This document shows positions 706-24,853 of a stretch of 64,000 bases of DNA, one piece after another. Position numbers and translations under genes: made by a program. How positions within the stretch are numbered: position 1 is the stretch's first letter; every line of letters starts with the position of its first letter. The DNA is from Blastocatellia bacterium (GTDB taxonomy: Bacteria; Acidobacteriota; Blastocatellia; RBC074). A model generated the notes under the pieces. It made no database searches, was not told the DNA's origin, and saw nothing but the letters and a program-made list of their open reading frames with translations. The stretch covers positions 24,300 through 88,299 of the forward strand of contig DATMAG010000049.1 in NCBI GenBank assembly GCA_035560235.1, written 5' to 3'.

Positions 706-768
706 AGCAGTCTTCAAATACTTCCTGCTGCATCTTCAAGGATTATTCTCAAAGGAGACAGACCGAAC

Positions 769-1326
769 ATGAATTCCGGCCCTGCTGCCACATCCGAGTT
801 CAATAACCCGAATCTTGAAATTCTCATTCCTGTCGACGTTTTGCAAGCCCGGATTCGGGAAATCGGGGCAGAGATTGCCCGTGATTATGCGGGTCGCAAG
901 CCTGAACTGATCTGTATTCTCAAGGGCGCGATGATGTTTATGAGCGACCTGATGCGCGCCATTGACCTGGAGCTGACGATTGATTTCATTGCTGTCTCAA
1001 GTTACGGCAAGGGGACCCGTTCGACCGGCGAGGTGAAGATCGTCAAGGATCTGGACAAGCCGCTGGAAGGCCGCGACATCATTCTCGTGGAAGACATTCT
1101 CGATACCGGACTGACGCTCAGCTATCTGGTCAACAACTTCCGTTCGCGCGGAGCAACTTCAATCAGAATCGCCACTCTGCTCAACAAACCCTCGCGTCGC
1201 AAGGTTGAGGTTGATGTTGCCTACAAAGGATTCGATATCCCGGATGAATTCGTCGTCGGCTACGGCCTCGATTACGCGGAACGATACCGCAACCTGCCCT
1301 ACATCGGAGTAGTGCGAAACCCGTGA
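769..1326 (+). CDS. hpt: hypoxanthine-guanine phosphoribosyltransferase
   Basis: It lies in the 472..1326 ORF frame. The ATG is at 769 with an AAGGAG Shine-Dalgarno sequence about 10 nt upstream. The product carries the PRTase motif DIILVEDILDTGLTLSY, and the HPRT-like sequence reads PVDVLQARIREIGAEIARDY...ILKGAMMFMSDL...VVGYGLDY. Confidence 0.85.
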   Translation: MNSGPAATSEFNNPNLEILIPVDVLQARIREIGAEIARDYAGRKPELICILKGAMMFMSDLMRAIDLELTIDFIAVSSYGKGTRSTGEVKIVKDLDKPLEGRDIILVEDILDTGLTLSYLVNNFRSRGATSIRIATLLNKPSRRKVEVDVAYKGFDIPDEFVVGYGLDYAERYRNLPYIGVVRNP

Positions 1327-2887: not shown

Positions 2888-3313
2888 TCAGCAGAATTCC
2901 GTCGCGTTGAAGAAGTAGCTCAGTTCAATTCTGGCATTCTCAGGCGAGTCTGACCCGTGGACGGCATTTTCGCCGACGCTCGTGCCGAAGTCACCGCGAA
3001 TCGTCCCTTTCGGCGCTTTGGTTGAATCGGTCGGCCCCATCAGATCGCGCCACGCCTGCACCGCGTTCTCCTTTTCAAGCGCCATTACGACGACCGGCCC
3101 GCTGATCATGAATTCGACAAGTTCACCGAAGAAGGGCCGTTCACGATGCACGGCGTAAAAACCCTCAGCCACGGGTTTCGTCAGGTGCAGCATCTTCAGC
3201 GCGCGCACCTTGAACCCATTGTCAGTGATGCGCTGAATGATGTTGCCGATGTTGCCCGCGCGCACGGCATCGGGCTTGATGATTGCAAAAGTCATTGTTG
3301 GTGTTTCTGCCAT
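2888..3313 (-). CDS. ndk: nucleoside diphosphate kinase
   Basis: [73 protein letters not shown]...[20 protein letters not shown]. The sequence is diagnostic for Ndk. Confidence 0.9.
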
Positions 3314-3566
3314 AGCTCCTCAAGTAAGTAATTGATCTGATCCTTCAGAATTATCAGTGGCTTTGTCAGGTAGTGATGGATAATACCATTGATGATTACG
3401 CGATTAGAAGCGCACGGCAGAGTGGCAGACAGTCACCGTCCCGGCATTTCTTCGGTTCAGCCATCTCTGCTCAAATCCCTGTGAGAAATTTCAGAGTGTC
3501 GCATATAATTCGGGCTTCAGCAGTCAACAGCAGAACCCTTTCCCCGCTGAGACAGAGAACTGAGCA

Positions 3567-19940: not shown

Positions 19941-20924
19941 CTACTCTTCATATCCATTCGGGTGCGCCAGATGCCAGCGCCAGGCAGATTCGATGATGTG
20001 ATCGAGTTCGCTGTGACGGGGTTGCCAGCCGAGATCGAGCATCGCCCGGTCAGCGCTGGCAATCAGAATCGGCGGGTCGCCGGGACGGCGCGGCGCGCGT
20101 TCAGTCGGAATCCAACGGCCCGTCACCTGACGCGCCATTTCAACCACTTCGCTGACTGAATAGCCGCTGCCGTAACCCAGATTGTAAATGCAACTGCTTT
20201 TATCGAGCGCGCGCAGCGCCAGCACGTGCGCTTCGGTCAGGTCAGTGACGTGAATGTAATCGCGGATGCAGGTGCCGTCCGGCGTCGGGTAATCCTCGCC
20301 AAAAATCTTCACGCTCTCCGCTTTGCCCATCGCCACACGCAGCACGAGCGGAATCAGATGTGTTTCAGGATCGTGATCCTCGCCGCATCGTTCGGTTGCT
20401 CCGGCAGCATTGAAGTAACGCAGGCTGGCATAACGCAACTGATACGCTTCGTCGTACCAGCGGAGCGCGCGTTCAAAAGCCAGCTTCGATTCGCCGTAAG
20501 GATTGGTCGGCCTCTGCGGCGCGTCTTCGGTAATCGGCATCTGCTCGACCGCGCCATACGTCGCGCAGGTCGAAGAGAAGACGATCTTTTTCACCCTGGC
20601 TTCGACCATCGCGCCAAGCAGCGAAAGACCGCCGACCAGATTGTTGGTGTAATACTTGTGCGGATTCGTGACCGATTCACCGACCAGCGCATTGGCGGCC
20701 ATGTGAATGACGGCTTCGATCTGATGTTCTTCAAATGCGCGAATCAGTTTCGGCTGATCGTGCAGATCGCCTTCGATAAAGACCGCCTCAGGATCAACCG
20801 CCTGGCGATGCCCCTGCGAGAGATTGTCATACACGATGGCGCGATGCCCGTGCGCAATCAGGCGCTCGACCATCACGCTGCCAATGTATCCGGCTCCTCC
20901 GGTAACCAGAACGTTCATGCTCAA
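19941..20924 (-). CDS. galE: UDP-glucose 4-epimerase
   Basis: [14 protein letters not shown]... plus the YxxxK region ...RYFNAAGA... The protein is 327 aa with an SDR-extended fold. Confidence 0.85.
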
Positions 20925-21097
20925 GACTCCTCTGAATCAGGCTGCTGCCGGGATCTGTTACTGCCTGAGGCCCGGCCAGTGCGGTGCGGTAGTATCGCAG
21001 AATTCAATCAGCAGCGAAACCGTTCGGAGCTGACGAGCGGAAAAGGCCGGAGTGAGTGAAGATGAAGGCAGAGGGAAGGAAGATGCAGTGCGGGCAG

Positions 21098-21125
21098 AGG
21101 CAATGAAAAAGGGGATGGCGGCCCA
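21098..21125 (-). terminator. rho-independent terminator of the histone H1-like gene
   Basis: The minus strand reads GGGGATGG-GCCGCC-ATCCCC followed by TTTTTC, a GC stem plus U-tract, about 35 nt downstream of the stop. Confidence 0.65.
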
Positions 21126-21159
21126 TCCCCTCAGCGATCATGAATGATCAGATCGAAGT

Positions 21160-21288
21160 TATTTCTTCTTTGCGGTCGTCTTCTTCGCCGTCGTCTTTGC
21201 TTTGGCCGGAGCCTTCTTGGTTGCGGTGGACTTGCTTGCAGTCTTCGTCGCAGCCTTCTTCGTCGTGGTCTTCTTTGCCGTTGGCATA
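21160..21288 (-). CDS. small lysine/alanine/threonine-rich histone H1-like DNA-binding protein (42 aa)
   Basis: My own translation is MPTAKKTTTKKAATKTASKSTATKKAPAKAKTTAKKTTAKKK. An AAGGAG Shine-Dalgarno sequence lies 8 nt upstream of the ATG, an AT-rich promoter region lies upstream, and a clean terminator lies downstream. It is absent from the ORF track because it is under 60 aa. The Arg-rich track ORFs at 21131..21313 and 21144..21332 are off-frame shadows of this gene. Confidence 0.55.
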
Positions 21289-21596
21289 ACTGTCGTCTCC
21301 TTTTAAAAAACACCCCGACTACAAGATATTGACCTCAGATTGTCCTTGTAGCCAGGGAGCAGTTACATACATTGGGTGGTTATATAGTTCTTCCTGACAC
21401 TGTGTGTCAACATTTTTTTCTGATCACGCTGAAGCGAGGCAGTGAACAGAATAACTTCATGCGAACACCTCTCTGAAGCAATGAATGGCAAGTGGCAGCG
21501 AAGGGGCTGAAAACTTTTGTGGCGGGGCGAGAATGACAGAGGCGAGCCTTGTCACAGGCTCGCCTCTGTCGTGTGGTTTATTTCAATCAGACCGAA

Positions 21597-22436
21597 TTAC
21601 TGTTTGGGTTTGTCAGGCCTGCATCTCGGATCAGTCGGCGGACACTGACCATCATACAGCACGCCGGTGCAGACAGTCCGGCCTTCAATCTCAAACGGGA
21701 TGCCGCCTTTGGGACAGCGCGGATCTGTCGGGGTCTTTGCAGTTGAAGGCAGGCCGACCCCAAACAGGGGCAGGCCGGGAATGATCATCTGATTCGGAGT
21801 CGGAATCCCGGCAATGATGACGCTCTTGTCGTAGGTTTCAATGCCGTAATAGAAGCGGATCAGATGATCCTTGCTGCGGCTGACAACGCCGACGAACGGG
21901 CCGAATTCGCTGCTGCCGAGCGCCGGCTCCGAATCCTTCTTTGCATCTTTGCTGCTGCTGTCAAGCGAAAGATCGGTGGCTGGCATTGCCAGTGCCTGAC
22001 CGAGAATGCCTGGCGGCGGCTGCTTCATCGTGTTGACCCAGGCGAGCGCCAGTTCCTTCAGCACCGGATCGCCCATTCGCACCAGTCGCCAGTCGCCCTT
22101 GAGGGTCATCGGATCCTTCAGCGCCGACGGGCGCAGGTAACGCTTCGAGGCGGCAACCGGATCGAGTTCGGTCAGTTGTTCCAGGCTCGTCGGATACTGA
22201 TTGTTGTGTTCTCTGGCAAAGCGCGCAATCGCGTTGGCGATCTGTTCGCCGCGATAGAACATCTCTTCCTCGCGCTCGCGCTGCATGTCGTGCCTGAGCG
22301 ACGGGAGCGCCGCAGCAATGAAGATCAGCGAGATCGTCATCCCGGCAAGCAGCGCGACCATCGCGTAACCTGCTTCGTGACGACGTGAGGAACGCGGCGA
22401 GTGAAGTGAAGTCGCTCTGCGGATCGTGTTGCTCAT
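21597..22436 (-). CDS. pseudopilin-like protein (GspG/PulG-like fold) with atypical N-terminal segment
   Basis: The N-terminus ...HEAGYAMVALLAGMTISLIFIAAALPSL is a hydrophobic helix. It is followed by ...EEEMFYRGEQIANAIARFAREHNNQYPTSLEQLTE..., which resembles the GspG/PulG helix-loop region (compare E. coli GspG ...YRLDNGRYPTTEQGLQALV). It lacks the canonical G-F-T-L-I-E prepilin motif, having Ala at position +5. Confidence 0.45.
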   Translation of the reverse strand: MSNTIRRATSLHSPRSSRRHEAGYAMVALLAGMTISLIFIAAALPSLRHDMQREREEEMFYRGEQIANAIARFAREHNNQYPTSLEQLTELDPVAASKRYLRPSALKDPMTLKGDWRLVRMGDPVLKELALAWVNTMKQPPPGILGQALAMPATDLSLDSSSKDAKKDSEPALGSSEFGPFVGVVSRSKDHLIRFYYGIETYDKSVIIAGIPTPNQMIIPGLPLFGVGLPSTAKTPTDPRCPKGGIPFEIEGRTVCTGVLYDGQCPPTDPRCRPDKPKQ

Positions 22437-22475
22437 CGTGACTGCCTTTCTGCGCTTCAGCGCAATCAGAACCCA

Positions 22476-23312
22476 TCAACTGCCTTCGCCGCTGAACGGC
22501 ACGCGATGGCGGATTTTGATGTTGGTGTCTTCGATTTCAATCTCCTGCGGAGTAATGCTGATTAGCTTCCAGTGACCAGGCTGATTGTTTCGTCTGTCCA
22601 GAATGGCATCCTTGCGCACGTAAATCAGATCTTCTTCGAGATCGAACTTGACCACAGCGGTCGTCACTCCGTCCTTGACGATCATGCCGAGATACTTGTA
22701 AGGCGGCGCGGGTGGCGGGGTGACGTTGAGGTTGAAGACGTTCGAAAAGAGCTTCGGGTCGTTTGCGCCGCGCACTTCAACCGGCAGCGAACCCGGATTG
22801 GCAATGCTCGCGGCAGGCACAGTTACCTTGAGCTGCGAATCGCTGACGAAGGTTGTCTTGAGCTGCCGCCCGGCAATGAAGACGACCGCATCAGACGGGA
22901 ACTTCGCGCCGAAGAGCGTCATCGTGAAATCGCCGGTGCGACCGATGACTCCGGCAGGATTCAGCCCTGAGAGCGTGATCGGCGGCGGGATCGGCGGCGG
23001 TGTTGGCGGCGGCGGTGTTGGTGTCGGCGGCGGCGGATAGACGAAGATGTTGCGCCCTGCGCCCGGCTCCTGCGCGCGGCTGGTCATCGCCGCAAGCTCG
23101 AGCGGCTTGTCAATCACCGGCAGTTCGTTCTTGTTCGGCGTCGGGGTCGGCGCCGGATTCTTTGACTTGCCCGCCGTCTGCCCGCTCTGCGATTTGTTCG
23201 GAGTTGAAGGCGTATCTTCCTCAGAGAAGAAGTTGTAATAAAGCACTCCGCCGAGCGCGGCGAGCAGCGCAACCATCAGGATCAGTTTCTTGTTGTCCTG
23301 CGTTAAGTTCAT
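22476..23312 (-). CDS. membrane-anchored proline-rich protein with an IPT/TIG-like domain (possible PilP/GspC-like component)
   Basis: MNLTQDNKKLILMVALLAALGGVLYY is an N-terminal anchor. It is followed by a PPPPTPTPPPPTPPPIPPP linker and a beta-rich domain (ITLSGLNPAGVIGRTGDFTMTLFGAKFPSDAVVFIAGRQLKTTFVSDSQLKVTVPAASIANPGSLPVEVR). The position after the PilO-like gene suggests a PilP-like role. Confidence 0.4.
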   Translation of the reverse strand: MNLTQDNKKLILMVALLAALGGVLYYNFFSEEDTPSTPNKSQSGQTAGKSKNPAPTPTPNKNELPVIDKPLELAAMTSRAQEPGAGRNIFVYPPPPTPTPPPPTPPPIPPPITLSGLNPAGVIGRTGDFTMTLFGAKFPSDAVVFIAGRQLKTTFVSDSQLKVTVPAASIANPGSLPVEVRGANDPKLFSNVFNLNVTPPPAPPYKYLGMIVKDGVTTAVVKFDLEEDLIYVRKDAILDRRNNQPGHWKLISITPQEIEIEDTNIKIRHRVPFSGEGS

Positions 23313-23360
23313 GACTACCTGCTTTCGTCAGTTCCAGCGCCTGCGCGAGCCCGCAGATGC

Positions 23361-24197
23361 TTACTTCTTTCCCATGGCCTGAGTCGGACCTGTTCCGGCC
23401 ACGGGCGAGGGCACAGCAGTGGCCGGATAGATAAACGCCCGCAGGCCTTCAGGCTTTCGGAAATATGCATCGAGTTCAATCTTGAGCGCGATGTTCTGCG
23501 TCCCCGGATCAGGGATGTTGCCGATGGCGCTCGGCACGATGCGCCCCTTGATCTGCCGCGTCTTCTCATCCACGCCCTGAAACGCGACCGCGCTGATGAT
23601 CAGGAACTGTTTGCTGCGTTCGAGGTCGTAGATGAATTTGCGCAGATTGCGATAATCGCCTTCGACCGCCGTATCAATGCCGAGCGAGGGATAAACGCTC
23701 AGGTCGCGGCTCAGTTTCAGCGGCGCAGGCGCAGAGCTGCTGCCGGGTTCGGCATCGGGCGACAGAGTGGGCGTGGCCTCAGCCAGTTCCGAACCCTTCG
23801 GCTGATAGGTAAAACCCGGCGTCATCAGGCTGTGCGCTCTGGCCAGCTGATTGATCTCCGTGATCATCTGCGTGTGACCCGTCACGCGATCCTTCAGCAT
23901 TTCTTCAAAATCGGTCAGGCTCTCCAGAATATTCTCCTTGTGTTCGCGCTGTCGCCTGAGCGCATCGGCCTGCCGGGCCTGTTCGGCGATCTTCGTTTCA
24001 GCCGTTTTCAGCCGGGCCTTCAGATCGGCGATCTCGGAATATCTGGGCTGAATCTTCGTCAGATAAAAGAACGCGACGAACGAAGCAAAAAGGATGGCGG
24101 CGACGAGAAAGACGCTTTCAACCAGTGTCAGACGCAGGCCGCTGAAAAAGCCGCGCACGCTGTCGAGCAGATCAGAGGTATTGAATCGAGCAGCCAT
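23361..24197 (-). CDS. PilO/GspM-like inner-membrane pilus or secretion assembly protein
   Basis: A short cytoplasmic N-terminus is followed by a single TM helix (LVESVFLVAAILFASFVAFFYL) and a periplasmic coiled-coil (IADLKARLKTAETKIAEQARQADALRRQ). Its start overlaps the stop of the upstream PilN-like gene. Confidence 0.5.
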   Translation of the reverse strand: MAARFNTSDLLDSVRGFFSGLRLTLVESVFLVAAILFASFVAFFYLTKIQPRYSEIADLKARLKTAETKIAEQARQADALRRQREHKENILESLTDFEEMLKDRVTGHTQMITEINQLARAHSLMTPGFTYQPKGSELAEATPTLSPDAEPGSSSAPAPLKLSRDLSVYPSLGIDTAVEGDYRNLRKFIYDLERSKQFLIISAVAFQGVDEKTRQIKGRIVPSAIGNIPDPGTQNIALKIELDAYFRKPEGLRAFIYPATAVPSPVAGTGPTQAMGKK

Positions 24198-24853
24198 TAC
24201 TTCTGTCCTCCCTTCGCCACCTGATTGCCAGGCACCGCCTGACTGACGCGGCGCGGAACCGGCGGGTAGTAAGTGACCGCCAGTTCAAACTCGACCTCTT
24301 CAGTTCCCTCAAGGATGTTCTCCTTGCGCGCAACCACATAAAACTGGCCGGACTGATTGAAGGTGTCCATCATCTTCACGACCTCGGTGTAATTCCTCCC
24401 GGTAACTTCAAAGGTCAGTGAGACGGCCTTCGGCGCATCATCGTTGCTGACGGTGACGGCGCTGCCGCTGCCGACATTCTGCTTCTCCTCGATCTTGCTG
24501 AGCGCGATCTTGCGCACGCGCACGGTGGGTGGAATCAGCCGTTCGATTTCATTGAACAGTTGTGACCACGAGAACGCCTTGCGCTGAATCAGATCCCTGG
24601 CGGCGAGCATTGAGAGCGTCTGTTCCGGCGTCAGCACCGGCACGACGCCGCCGTTCGTTTCCAGCTTTTTTACTTCTTCCTGCTTCTTCCTGACTTCGGG
24701 TTCAAGGCGGGCAATTTCGCGGTCGAGGTCGTTGATCGTTTCAAGCGTTCTGAAGCCGACCAGCGACGAGACTGCGAAGATGAGCAGAATCGCCAGCCAG
24801 AAGAGCCGTCGGTTCCGAAACGGTCTGCTGGAAAGATTAACTAAAGGTTTCAT
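24197..24853 (-). CDS. PilN/GspL-like inner-membrane pilus or secretion assembly protein
   Basis: The N-terminus MKPLVNLSSRPFRNRRLFWLAILLIFAVSSL has a PilN-type NL..P.R motif and a TM helix. A coiled-coil region follows (DLDREIARLEPEVRKKQEEVKKLE). Confidence 0.5.
   Translation of the reverse strand: MKPLVNLSSRPFRNRRLFWLAILLIFAVSSLVGFRTLETINDLDREIARLEPEVRKKQEEVKKLETNGGVVPVLTPEQTLSMLAARDLIQRKAFSWSQLFNEIERLIPPTVRVRKIALSKIEEKQNVGSGSAVTVSNDDAPKAVSLTFEVTGRNYTEVVKMMDTFNQSGQFYVVARKENILEGTEEVEFELAVTYYPPVPRRVSQAVPGNQVAKGGQK

Follow-up and report, generated by a model that had tools for sequence, protein, structure and literature searches.

Does a lysine-rich open reading frame (ORF) of only 42 codons, on the minus strand of a contig from a Blastocatellia bacterium, encode a protein, and what would such a protein do? 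The question arises from a 64,000-nucleotide (nt) stretch of assembly GCA_035560235.1 (contig DATMAG010000049.1, forward-strand positions 24,300 to 88,299), which was analysed at its full length and is called the window here. In it, an initial annotation had proposed an overlooked histone H1-like gene. We find that the small gene is real and monocistronic, that it evolves under purifying selection in its lysine-rich frame (the K frame), and that its cassette is conserved in full. Translation of the K frame we regard as very probable. As for the product, we favour, at a probability of roughly 55%, an abundant monocistronic polycationic micro-protein that would bind a polyanion electrostatically, most likely chromosomal DNA; this reading draws on the sequence and on analogy with known proteins.

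The region 21106-21419 of the minus strand forms a self-contained unit. An A-tract and a promoter come first, then a leader (about 90 nt) that includes a stem-loop, a strong Shine-Dalgarno (SD) sequence, the 42-codon ORF and a terminator. In the 5' to 3' direction, its features are as follows.

21413-21419, minus strand: A7 tract resembling an UP element, directly 5' of the -35 hexamer; an A-rich run is kept here in the group-1 and metagenome cassettes
21405-21410, minus strand: -35 hexamer TTGACA, invariant in the alignment of seven group-1 cassettes and in all 15 distinct cassettes
21381-21386, minus strand: -10 hexamer TATATA, separated from the -35 hexamer by an 18-nt spacer; a putative promoter element, assigned from its sequence
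21317-21353, minus strand: leader stem-loop of 10 bp (GGCTACAAGG/TCTTGTAGTC; 21353-21344 with 21326-21317) and a 17-nt loop
21297-21302, minus strand: SD sequence AAGGAG, 9 nt 5' of the ATG at 21287; (A)AGGAG or AGGAG stands at equal spacing in all cassettes
21159-21287, minus strand: 42-codon ORF with an ATG start and the stop codon TAA at 21161-21159; its product is MPTAKKTTTKKAATKTASKSTATKKAPAKAKTTAKKTTAKKK
21106-21130, minus strand: intrinsic terminator, with an 8-bp GC-rich stem GGGGATGG/CCATCCCC and the loop GCCG (21130-21111), followed by T5 (21110-21106)

The unannotated minus-strand ORF, rich in Lys, Ala and Thr, lies at these positions and its translation is exactly the one first claimed. 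The AAGGAG motif upstream of it is also present, at a spacing of 9 nt and not the 8 nt originally given, and the hairpin with its T5 run at 21130-21106 bears out the proposed GC hairpin and U-tract terminator. The upstream region is AT-rich, as had been described: its GC content is 0.43-0.45 over about 21250-21474, compared with 0.578 in the whole window, and a near-consensus promoter lies within it.

The product contains 15 Lys, 12 Thr, 10 Ala, 2 Pro and 2 Ser (36% Lys, 29% Thr, 24% Ala). Acidic and aromatic residues are absent, as is Arg; the product carries a KKAPAK motif and combines a mass of 4.4 kDa with a charge of about +14.5 and an isoelectric point of 11.1. AlphaFold predicts no secondary structure for it (predicted template modelling score, pTM, 0.18), and the product is probably an intrinsically disordered, purely cationic micro-protein. 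This lysine content is far beyond chance in the window. Among the 302 ATG-initiated ORFs of 25-90 amino acids (aa) in the window, the next highest Lys share is 15%, and the mean Lys content over the 28 long ORFs, which we treated as genes, is 4.1%. The Lys codons are also distinctive, with an AAG:AAA ratio of 13:2 in the small ORF versus 52:48 in the long ORFs of the window. On a public contig of 6.8 kb with identical sequence, gene prediction includes the exact 42-aa ORF.

We sought Lys-rich small ORFs in 80 galE loci (about 640 kb), and the search was confined to these loci. A same-strand Lys-rich ORF lies immediately 5' of galE in six Blastocatellia metagenome-assembled genomes (MAGs; loci L002, L003, L004, L005, L006 and L015). 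The six orthologues are 32, 42, 42, 51, 69 and 32 aa long, start with M[PA][TE]AKK and end with KKK-stop. Between the window and its closest relative, L002, 14 of the 16 nucleotide differences fall at codon position 3, with 13 synonymous and 2 non-synonymous changes and a ratio of non-synonymous to synonymous rates (dN/dS) of 0.033. The comparison with L003 gives 12 synonymous to 5 non-synonymous changes (dN/dS 0.094), and L002 and L003 differ from each other at a dN/dS of 0.22. Conservation of the frame in relatives was the test that the initial annotation had set for itself, and the frame is indeed conserved, start and stop included, at a dN/dS of 0.03-0.09 against the window.

In every cassette examined, the ATG, the SD spacing and the KKK-stop are invariant, and changes of length stay in frame. 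The family as a whole keeps a Lys share of 30-44% and both termini, uses small residues (A/T/P/G/S) as spacers and contains no acidic residues, no aromatic residues and no Arg; within group 1 a KKAPAK-like core is retained. The orthologue lengths of 32, 42, 51 and 69 aa come with conserved ends, and no regular pentamer unit is discernible. Judged from these alignments, selection keeps the charge density and the two ends, and neither the exact sequence nor the length.

Two further frames are open at the same place in the window, and either might be taken for the true gene: an Arg-rich 60-aa ORF (21131-21313, minus strand) and a hydrophobic antisense frame. Third codon positions are common to the K frame and this antisense frame, and most changes are 'synonymous' in the latter as well (11:3). 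However, open alternative frames are expected in such a T-poor, purine-rich sequence. The Arg frame has a stop near its start in L002, and other frames gain stops in L002, L003 and L005. The antisense frame moreover has no conserved start, SD sequence, promoter or T-tract in its own orientation. Stops and missing antisense start and SD signals thus contradict both candidates, to which we give almost no credence. The two longer ORFs that the initial annotation noted in other frames (21131-21313, minus strand, and 21144-21332, plus strand) do exist, and it was right to call them shadows.

Conservation extends over the whole cassette and falls off at its edges. The mean pairwise identities in an alignment of seven cassettes, with gaps in the coding sequence (CDS) scored as mismatches, are listed below.

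Just upstream of the A-tract: 0.27
A-tract to -10 hexamer: 0.75
-10 hexamer to hairpin start: 0.63
Leader hairpin: 0.69
CDS: 0.57
Terminator: 0.86
Just after the T-tract: 0.37

The higher identity of the promoter, leader hairpin and terminator (0.69-0.86, versus 0.57 in the ORF) raises the idea that the functional product is an RNA, either a small regulatory RNA or a cis element, with an ORF that is incidental or translated as a by-product. The nearly invariant terminator stem across divergent relatives and a transcript fold z-score of -2.76 are in line with this idea. The pattern of substitution is not: changes concentrate at codon position 3 (dN/dS 0.03), and lengths change by steps that keep the frame. 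The invariant ATG, optimally spaced SD sequence and KKK-stop also speak for translation, and Rfam 15 gives zero matches in the window at the gathering threshold. We consider an RNA-only product very unlikely.

One locus shows a different arrangement. L009 carries, at 3135-3317 on the plus strand and between a pilus-cluster gene and galE, another Lys/Ala-rich ORF of 60 aa (MAAKKAAKKAVKK...KKAK) with its own SD sequence and terminator. It has none of the shared promoter, leader and terminator, and it could be either an analogue in the same position or an orthologue that has diverged strongly.

One metagenome scan, with the terminator followed by K-K-K-stop as its pattern, returned more cassettes from soil. 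These have the same promoter, leader, SD sequence and terminator around shorter ORFs of 27-31 aa, rich in K/A/G/S, whose products are MAKAAAKKPAAKKPAAKPAKKAAKGGAKKK (30-31 aa) and M[AP]TAKKGGGGKKKGGAKKSAKKSSSKKK (27-28 aa). Their neighbours differ. In one case they are an HprK-like gene, asnB and a PHP-domain gene, and in another a methyltransferase and a cupin gene; in L084 and L099 the cassette is convergent with the neighbouring gene. Since the cassette occurs in unrelated neighbourhoods, we read it as a free-standing transcription unit, which is neither a galE leader nor a part of the pilus system.

On a 4-kb contig, L090, the scan met two inverted copies of the cassette (761-861, minus strand; 3183-3280, plus strand), in which many small indels break both ORFs. 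We rejected these copies as a pair of paralogues because their ORFs are riddled with frameshifts; in all likelihood the contig is a long read that is error-prone or chimeric. A scan of viral contigs with the same pattern of terminator and KKK-stop yielded nothing but an unrelated locus that duplicates L094.

The genomic contexts also bear on whether the small ORF is a leader peptide, rich in lysine codons, that attenuates transcription of galE. The arrangement in the window looks suitable for this purpose: a short ORF dominated by one residue, followed by a terminator, lies about 235 nt upstream of galE (19941-20924) in the same direction. However, the downstream genes differ among loci, and the convergent cassettes of L084 and L099 have nothing downstream to regulate. 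We see no anti-terminator structure that would compete with the very stable terminator, and galE has no link to lysine. Moreover, galE has a promoter-like motif of its own, TCTGCGATACT, at about 20991-21001 on the minus strand, 3' of the terminator of the small gene. This motif resembles an extended -10 element (TGnGATACT) and is found within 200 nt 5' of galE in 17 of 77 Blastocatellia loci, some of them lacking the small gene. Attenuation of galE is contradicted by the contexts of the cassettes, and we regard it as extremely improbable.

The promoter of the cassette varies little. The -10 hexamer reads TATATA, TATAAA or TTATAC across the 15 cassettes and is nearly invariant, and the spacer is 17-18 nt in nearly all of them. 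A simple consensus promoter scanner passed over the TTGACA/TATATA pair in the window, and the cause is the A at the last position of the -10 hexamer. To judge by its elements, the promoter looks like a strong housekeeping promoter. Together with the strength of the SD sequence and the bias towards AAG codons, it hints at an abundant product, and we infer high expression from these features.

The terminator stem is unchanged in L002, L003, L005, L006 and L015 and has one G-U change in L004, and its loop is mostly a GNRA sequence across the relatives. We notice that the near-invariant stem, GGGGAUGG/CCAUCCCC, is the same element in L002-L006 and L015 and in L083-L100. The relatives derived from galE loci were found independently of this element, and their GalE proteins are only 74-91% identical. 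As these alignments read, the terminator stem is far more conserved than is usual for terminators.

The leader stem-loop lies about 15-55 nt 5' of the SD sequence. It appears in the minimum free energy fold of the single sequence, and an RNAalifold consensus of 14 distinct cassettes shows compensatory double changes in four of its ten pairs. In this alignment 92% of the cells of the stem are paired, versus 31-54% when the partner columns are slid, and the covariation score is 0.289, versus 0.03-0.10 in the slid controls. A covariance model of the leader matches these cassettes alone in 786 kb scanned. Meanwhile, a second helix may form between the first nucleotides of the presumed transcript and the 5' arm of the main stem (21340-21375, compared with 21317-21353 for the main stem, minus strand). 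This competing helix (columns 11-17/31-37 of alignment A2, where the main stem takes columns 30-39/58-67) is 82% paired, versus 19-63% in controls, and one of its pairs is AU in six sequences and GC in six. The two helices would be mutually exclusive because both use the 5' arm of the main stem. The 5'-terminal helix could act as an RNA switch or as a 5' hairpin that stabilises the messenger RNA (mRNA). As the 14 leader sequences form only three groups, with few independent events, the covariation and the competing helix are a lead, short of demonstration.

The leader brings in another view of the peptide, as a polycation that binds RNA or ribosomes, modulates translation or serves as an RNA chaperone, and perhaps autoregulates through its own leader stem-loop. 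The disordered Lys/Pro/Ala tail of PhaF, with its KPAA motifs, offers a precedent, as it binds specific mRNAs upstream of the SD sequence and activates their translation (PMC12818456). Relatives of the window gene carry one to three KPAA motifs (three in L004, one in L005, one or two in group 2), and a covarying stem-loop 5' of the SD sequence, a possible competing helix and a strong housekeeping-like promoter would all suit this role. On the other hand, the window protein has no KPAA motif, and neither a ribosomal protein family nor a PDB chain matches it. Between its conserved ends the sequence is free to drift, from A/T-rich to G/S-rich, which argues against a specific pocket on RNA or the ribosome. 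We see an RNA- or ribosome-binding peptide as a minority possibility.

A more speculative idea joins the leader and the peptide in one circuit. Micro-proteins of 27-69 aa, similar to H1 tails, would form a self-regulating homeostat of polycation, in which the two-helix leader is a switch that senses the free peptide or a cation signal. The switch would tune the supply of a polycation that coats the nucleoid or RNA in soil Acidobacteriota, and the free peptide would regulate its own synthesis, as for ribosomal proteins. We hold this idea to be doubtful.

Can homology name the partner? Pfam gives no match for the window protein at E ≤ 10. The initial annotation had pointed to H1-like and Hc1 families, and a search against them yields no significant match. 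The winged-helix domain of linker histones H1/H5 (PF00538) matches neither the window protein nor any of the 13 family members at E ≤ 10, and chlamydial Hc1 (HctA; PF07432) likewise has no match at E ≤ 10. For Hc2, PF07382 matches 3 of the 13 members with a best E of 0.075, and NF038052 gives the window protein 8.3 bits (E = 2.4) against a cut-off of 135, with a best E across members of 0.22. The Burkholderia-type H1-like family NF038053 (best E = 0.84, 1 of 13 members) and the Rv3852 family NF050153 (best E = 0.35, 3 of 13 members) have no match to the window protein.

Broader searches gave the same picture. An exhaustive phmmer search against 1.84 billion representatives and a search of the PDB returned 0 matches each, and a word-indexed search with the single sequence found no significant or annotated match. 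A profile of 13 members retrieved only P0002, which is a mis-started family member, and an unrelated match at E = 6. By exact look-up, 10 family sequences, among them that of the window protein, are all absent from a collection of 15 billion proteins. The homology searches come back empty owing to the shortness and low complexity of the product.

We also observed that automatic gene calls start family members too far 5'. P0002 (L085/L092) is called at 68 aa with a spurious N-terminus of 40 residues, and the gene calls of L002 and L003 contain the mis-start 'MLVMPTAKK'. Such calls hide the family further in protein databases.

What remains of the label 'histone H1-like' is therefore its compositional part (36% Lys, KKAPAK); homology to any named H1-like family could not be established. 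The product has about the Lys share of H1 C-terminal tails (30-40%), with Ala/Pro/Thr/Ser spacers and predicted disorder, features that define a functional class and not a homology family. The label is apt as an analogy, in composition and in presumed mode of action, and does not make the protein a member of the family.

We propose that the unit is probably strongly expressed and that its product would be a disordered polycation, which binds a cellular polyanion electrostatically and independently of sequence. This mode of binding is suggested because charge density and ends are kept while sequence and length drift. The leading candidate partner is chromosomal DNA, and the peptide could neutralise its charge and compact it as in the case of the H1 C-terminal tail, Hc2 and ScvA/Hq1.

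Several points weigh against this proposal. There is no significant similarity to any characterised DNA-binding family (Pfam, NCBIfam, phmmer, profile, PDB), and the cassette stands beside galE in just 6 of the 80 relatives sampled at their galE loci. The unusually conserved leader and terminator hint at a role of the RNA beyond carrying the ORF. In addition, proteins of an equal composition class are described as binding polyphosphate (AlgP, PMC9239181) or mRNA (PhaF, PMC12818456). With these other polyanion partners documented, DNA is only the leading guess, and the partner is not readable from composition.

The polyphosphate case may be weighed here. AlgP of Pseudomonas aeruginosa, with a similar Lys/Ala/Pro composition, is described as facilitating the even spacing of polyphosphate granules (PMC9239181), and a purely cationic peptide could associate in the same way with such granules or with other polyanionic condensates. 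AlgP is, however, a far larger protein that has nearly thirty KPAA repeats (PMC12818456), and no ppk, ppx or granule gene lies nearby in any context that we have seen. An association with polyphosphate granules thus seems improbable to us.

In the window, the small gene is followed downstream by galE, a 16S-methyltransferase-like gene, coaD, an aminotransferase gene and the gene of RNase R. The relatives of GalE assign the window to the class Blastocatellia of the Acidobacteriota, and the closest of them, from a Blastocatellia MAG, has 91% identity. Upstream is a PilO-like/TIG-domain pilus-type cluster (21597-24853, minus strand), followed by recJ. The cluster consists of four genes of 279, 278, 278 and 218 aa with weak PilO, TIG and DivIC-like Pfam signals, and its final gene has a pseudopilin-like N-terminus; possibly these genes form a pilus or secretion module that is still uncharacterised. 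Synteny of the cluster with galE extends to 45 Blastocatellia loci, yet at only 30-66% identity. A perfect 17-bp hairpin at 21533-21572, which separates the last pilus-cluster gene (stop at 21597) from the promoter of the small gene, is probably the terminator of the pilus operon. The only Rfam match in E-value mode, a chance miRNA match with E = 0.81, falls on this hairpin.

The initial annotation had placed the small gene directly downstream of the pilus-type cluster. The position is correct, but the proximity is incidental, since the cassette also occurs elsewhere. In most of the 45 syntenic loci the pilus gene and galE nearly abut, and these loci have no cassette; among the pilus-galE loci, the cassette is confined to a sub-clade with an intergenic gap of at least 650 nt. 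A functional link between the small gene and the pilus cluster was ruled out on these grounds.

Acidobacteriota are among the most abundant soil bacteria. In the literature that we looked at, nothing was found on their chromatin or small proteome. The cassette represents a conserved and probably highly expressed micro-protein gene that protein collections systematically miss, and conservation of the whole cassette, with its promoter, leader hairpin and terminator, offers a route to such genes when protein searches fail. If the product does bind DNA, it would be among the smallest free-standing mimics of the histone H1 tail in bacteria and a minimal model for electrostatic compaction of the nucleoid; its conserved leader would be a candidate cis-regulatory RNA as well.

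The C-terminal domain of histone H1 and the tails of certain HU proteins (mycobacterial HupB/MDP1, Streptomyces HupS) have about 35-40% Lys, Ala/Pro/Thr/Ser spacers, a KKAPAK-type motif and disorder. The window peptide resembles them in composition, in the KKAPAK-type motif, in its predicted disorder and in the presumed electrostatic neutralisation of nucleic acid charge. The difference is that these tails are joined to a folded winged-helix or HU domain, whereas the window peptide would be a whole protein that looks like a tail.

Among stand-alone proteins, chlamydial Hc2 is described as binding DNA and as varying in length through lysine-rich repeats (PMC2848022). Like the window family, it is a low-complexity, Lys/Ala-rich protein with no globular domain and with length variation among lineages (32-69 aa here), and it is the sole family with even a faint profile signal for the window family. 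In contrast, Hc2 has 165-237 aa, pentamer repeats and Arg, compared with 42 aa, no regular repeat and no Arg in the window protein, and it comes from another phylum and lifestyle than the acidobacterial host. With scores far below threshold, there is no evidence of common descent with Hc2.

AlgP and PhaF share with the window peptide the character of Lys/Pro/Ala-rich disordered polycations, and the KPAA motifs in relatives of the window gene extend this likeness. They carry 9-30 tandem KPAA repeats in much larger proteins, whereas the window protein has none and shows Thr in place of Pro/Ala.

In size, the nearest counterpart is ScvA, a very small and highly basic protein of about 30 aa, which falls in the size class of the window family (27-69 aa). 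ScvA is Arg/Gln-rich, where the window protein is Lys/Ala/Thr-rich; it is developmentally regulated and belongs to an intracellular pathogen, and the two are likened by description. In the small-cell variant of Coxiella burnetii, ScvA and Hq1 are small, basic and DNA-binding, and they accompany nucleoid condensation (PMC4766238).

The window family is not demonstrably homologous to the H1 tail, Hc2, AlgP, PhaF, ScvA or Hq1 by sequence comparison, and the likenesses are those of composition, size and presumed action. Lysine-rich bacterial proteins that resemble the H1 tail are already known; what is new here is the very small size, the unusually conserved cassette and the candidate structured leader.

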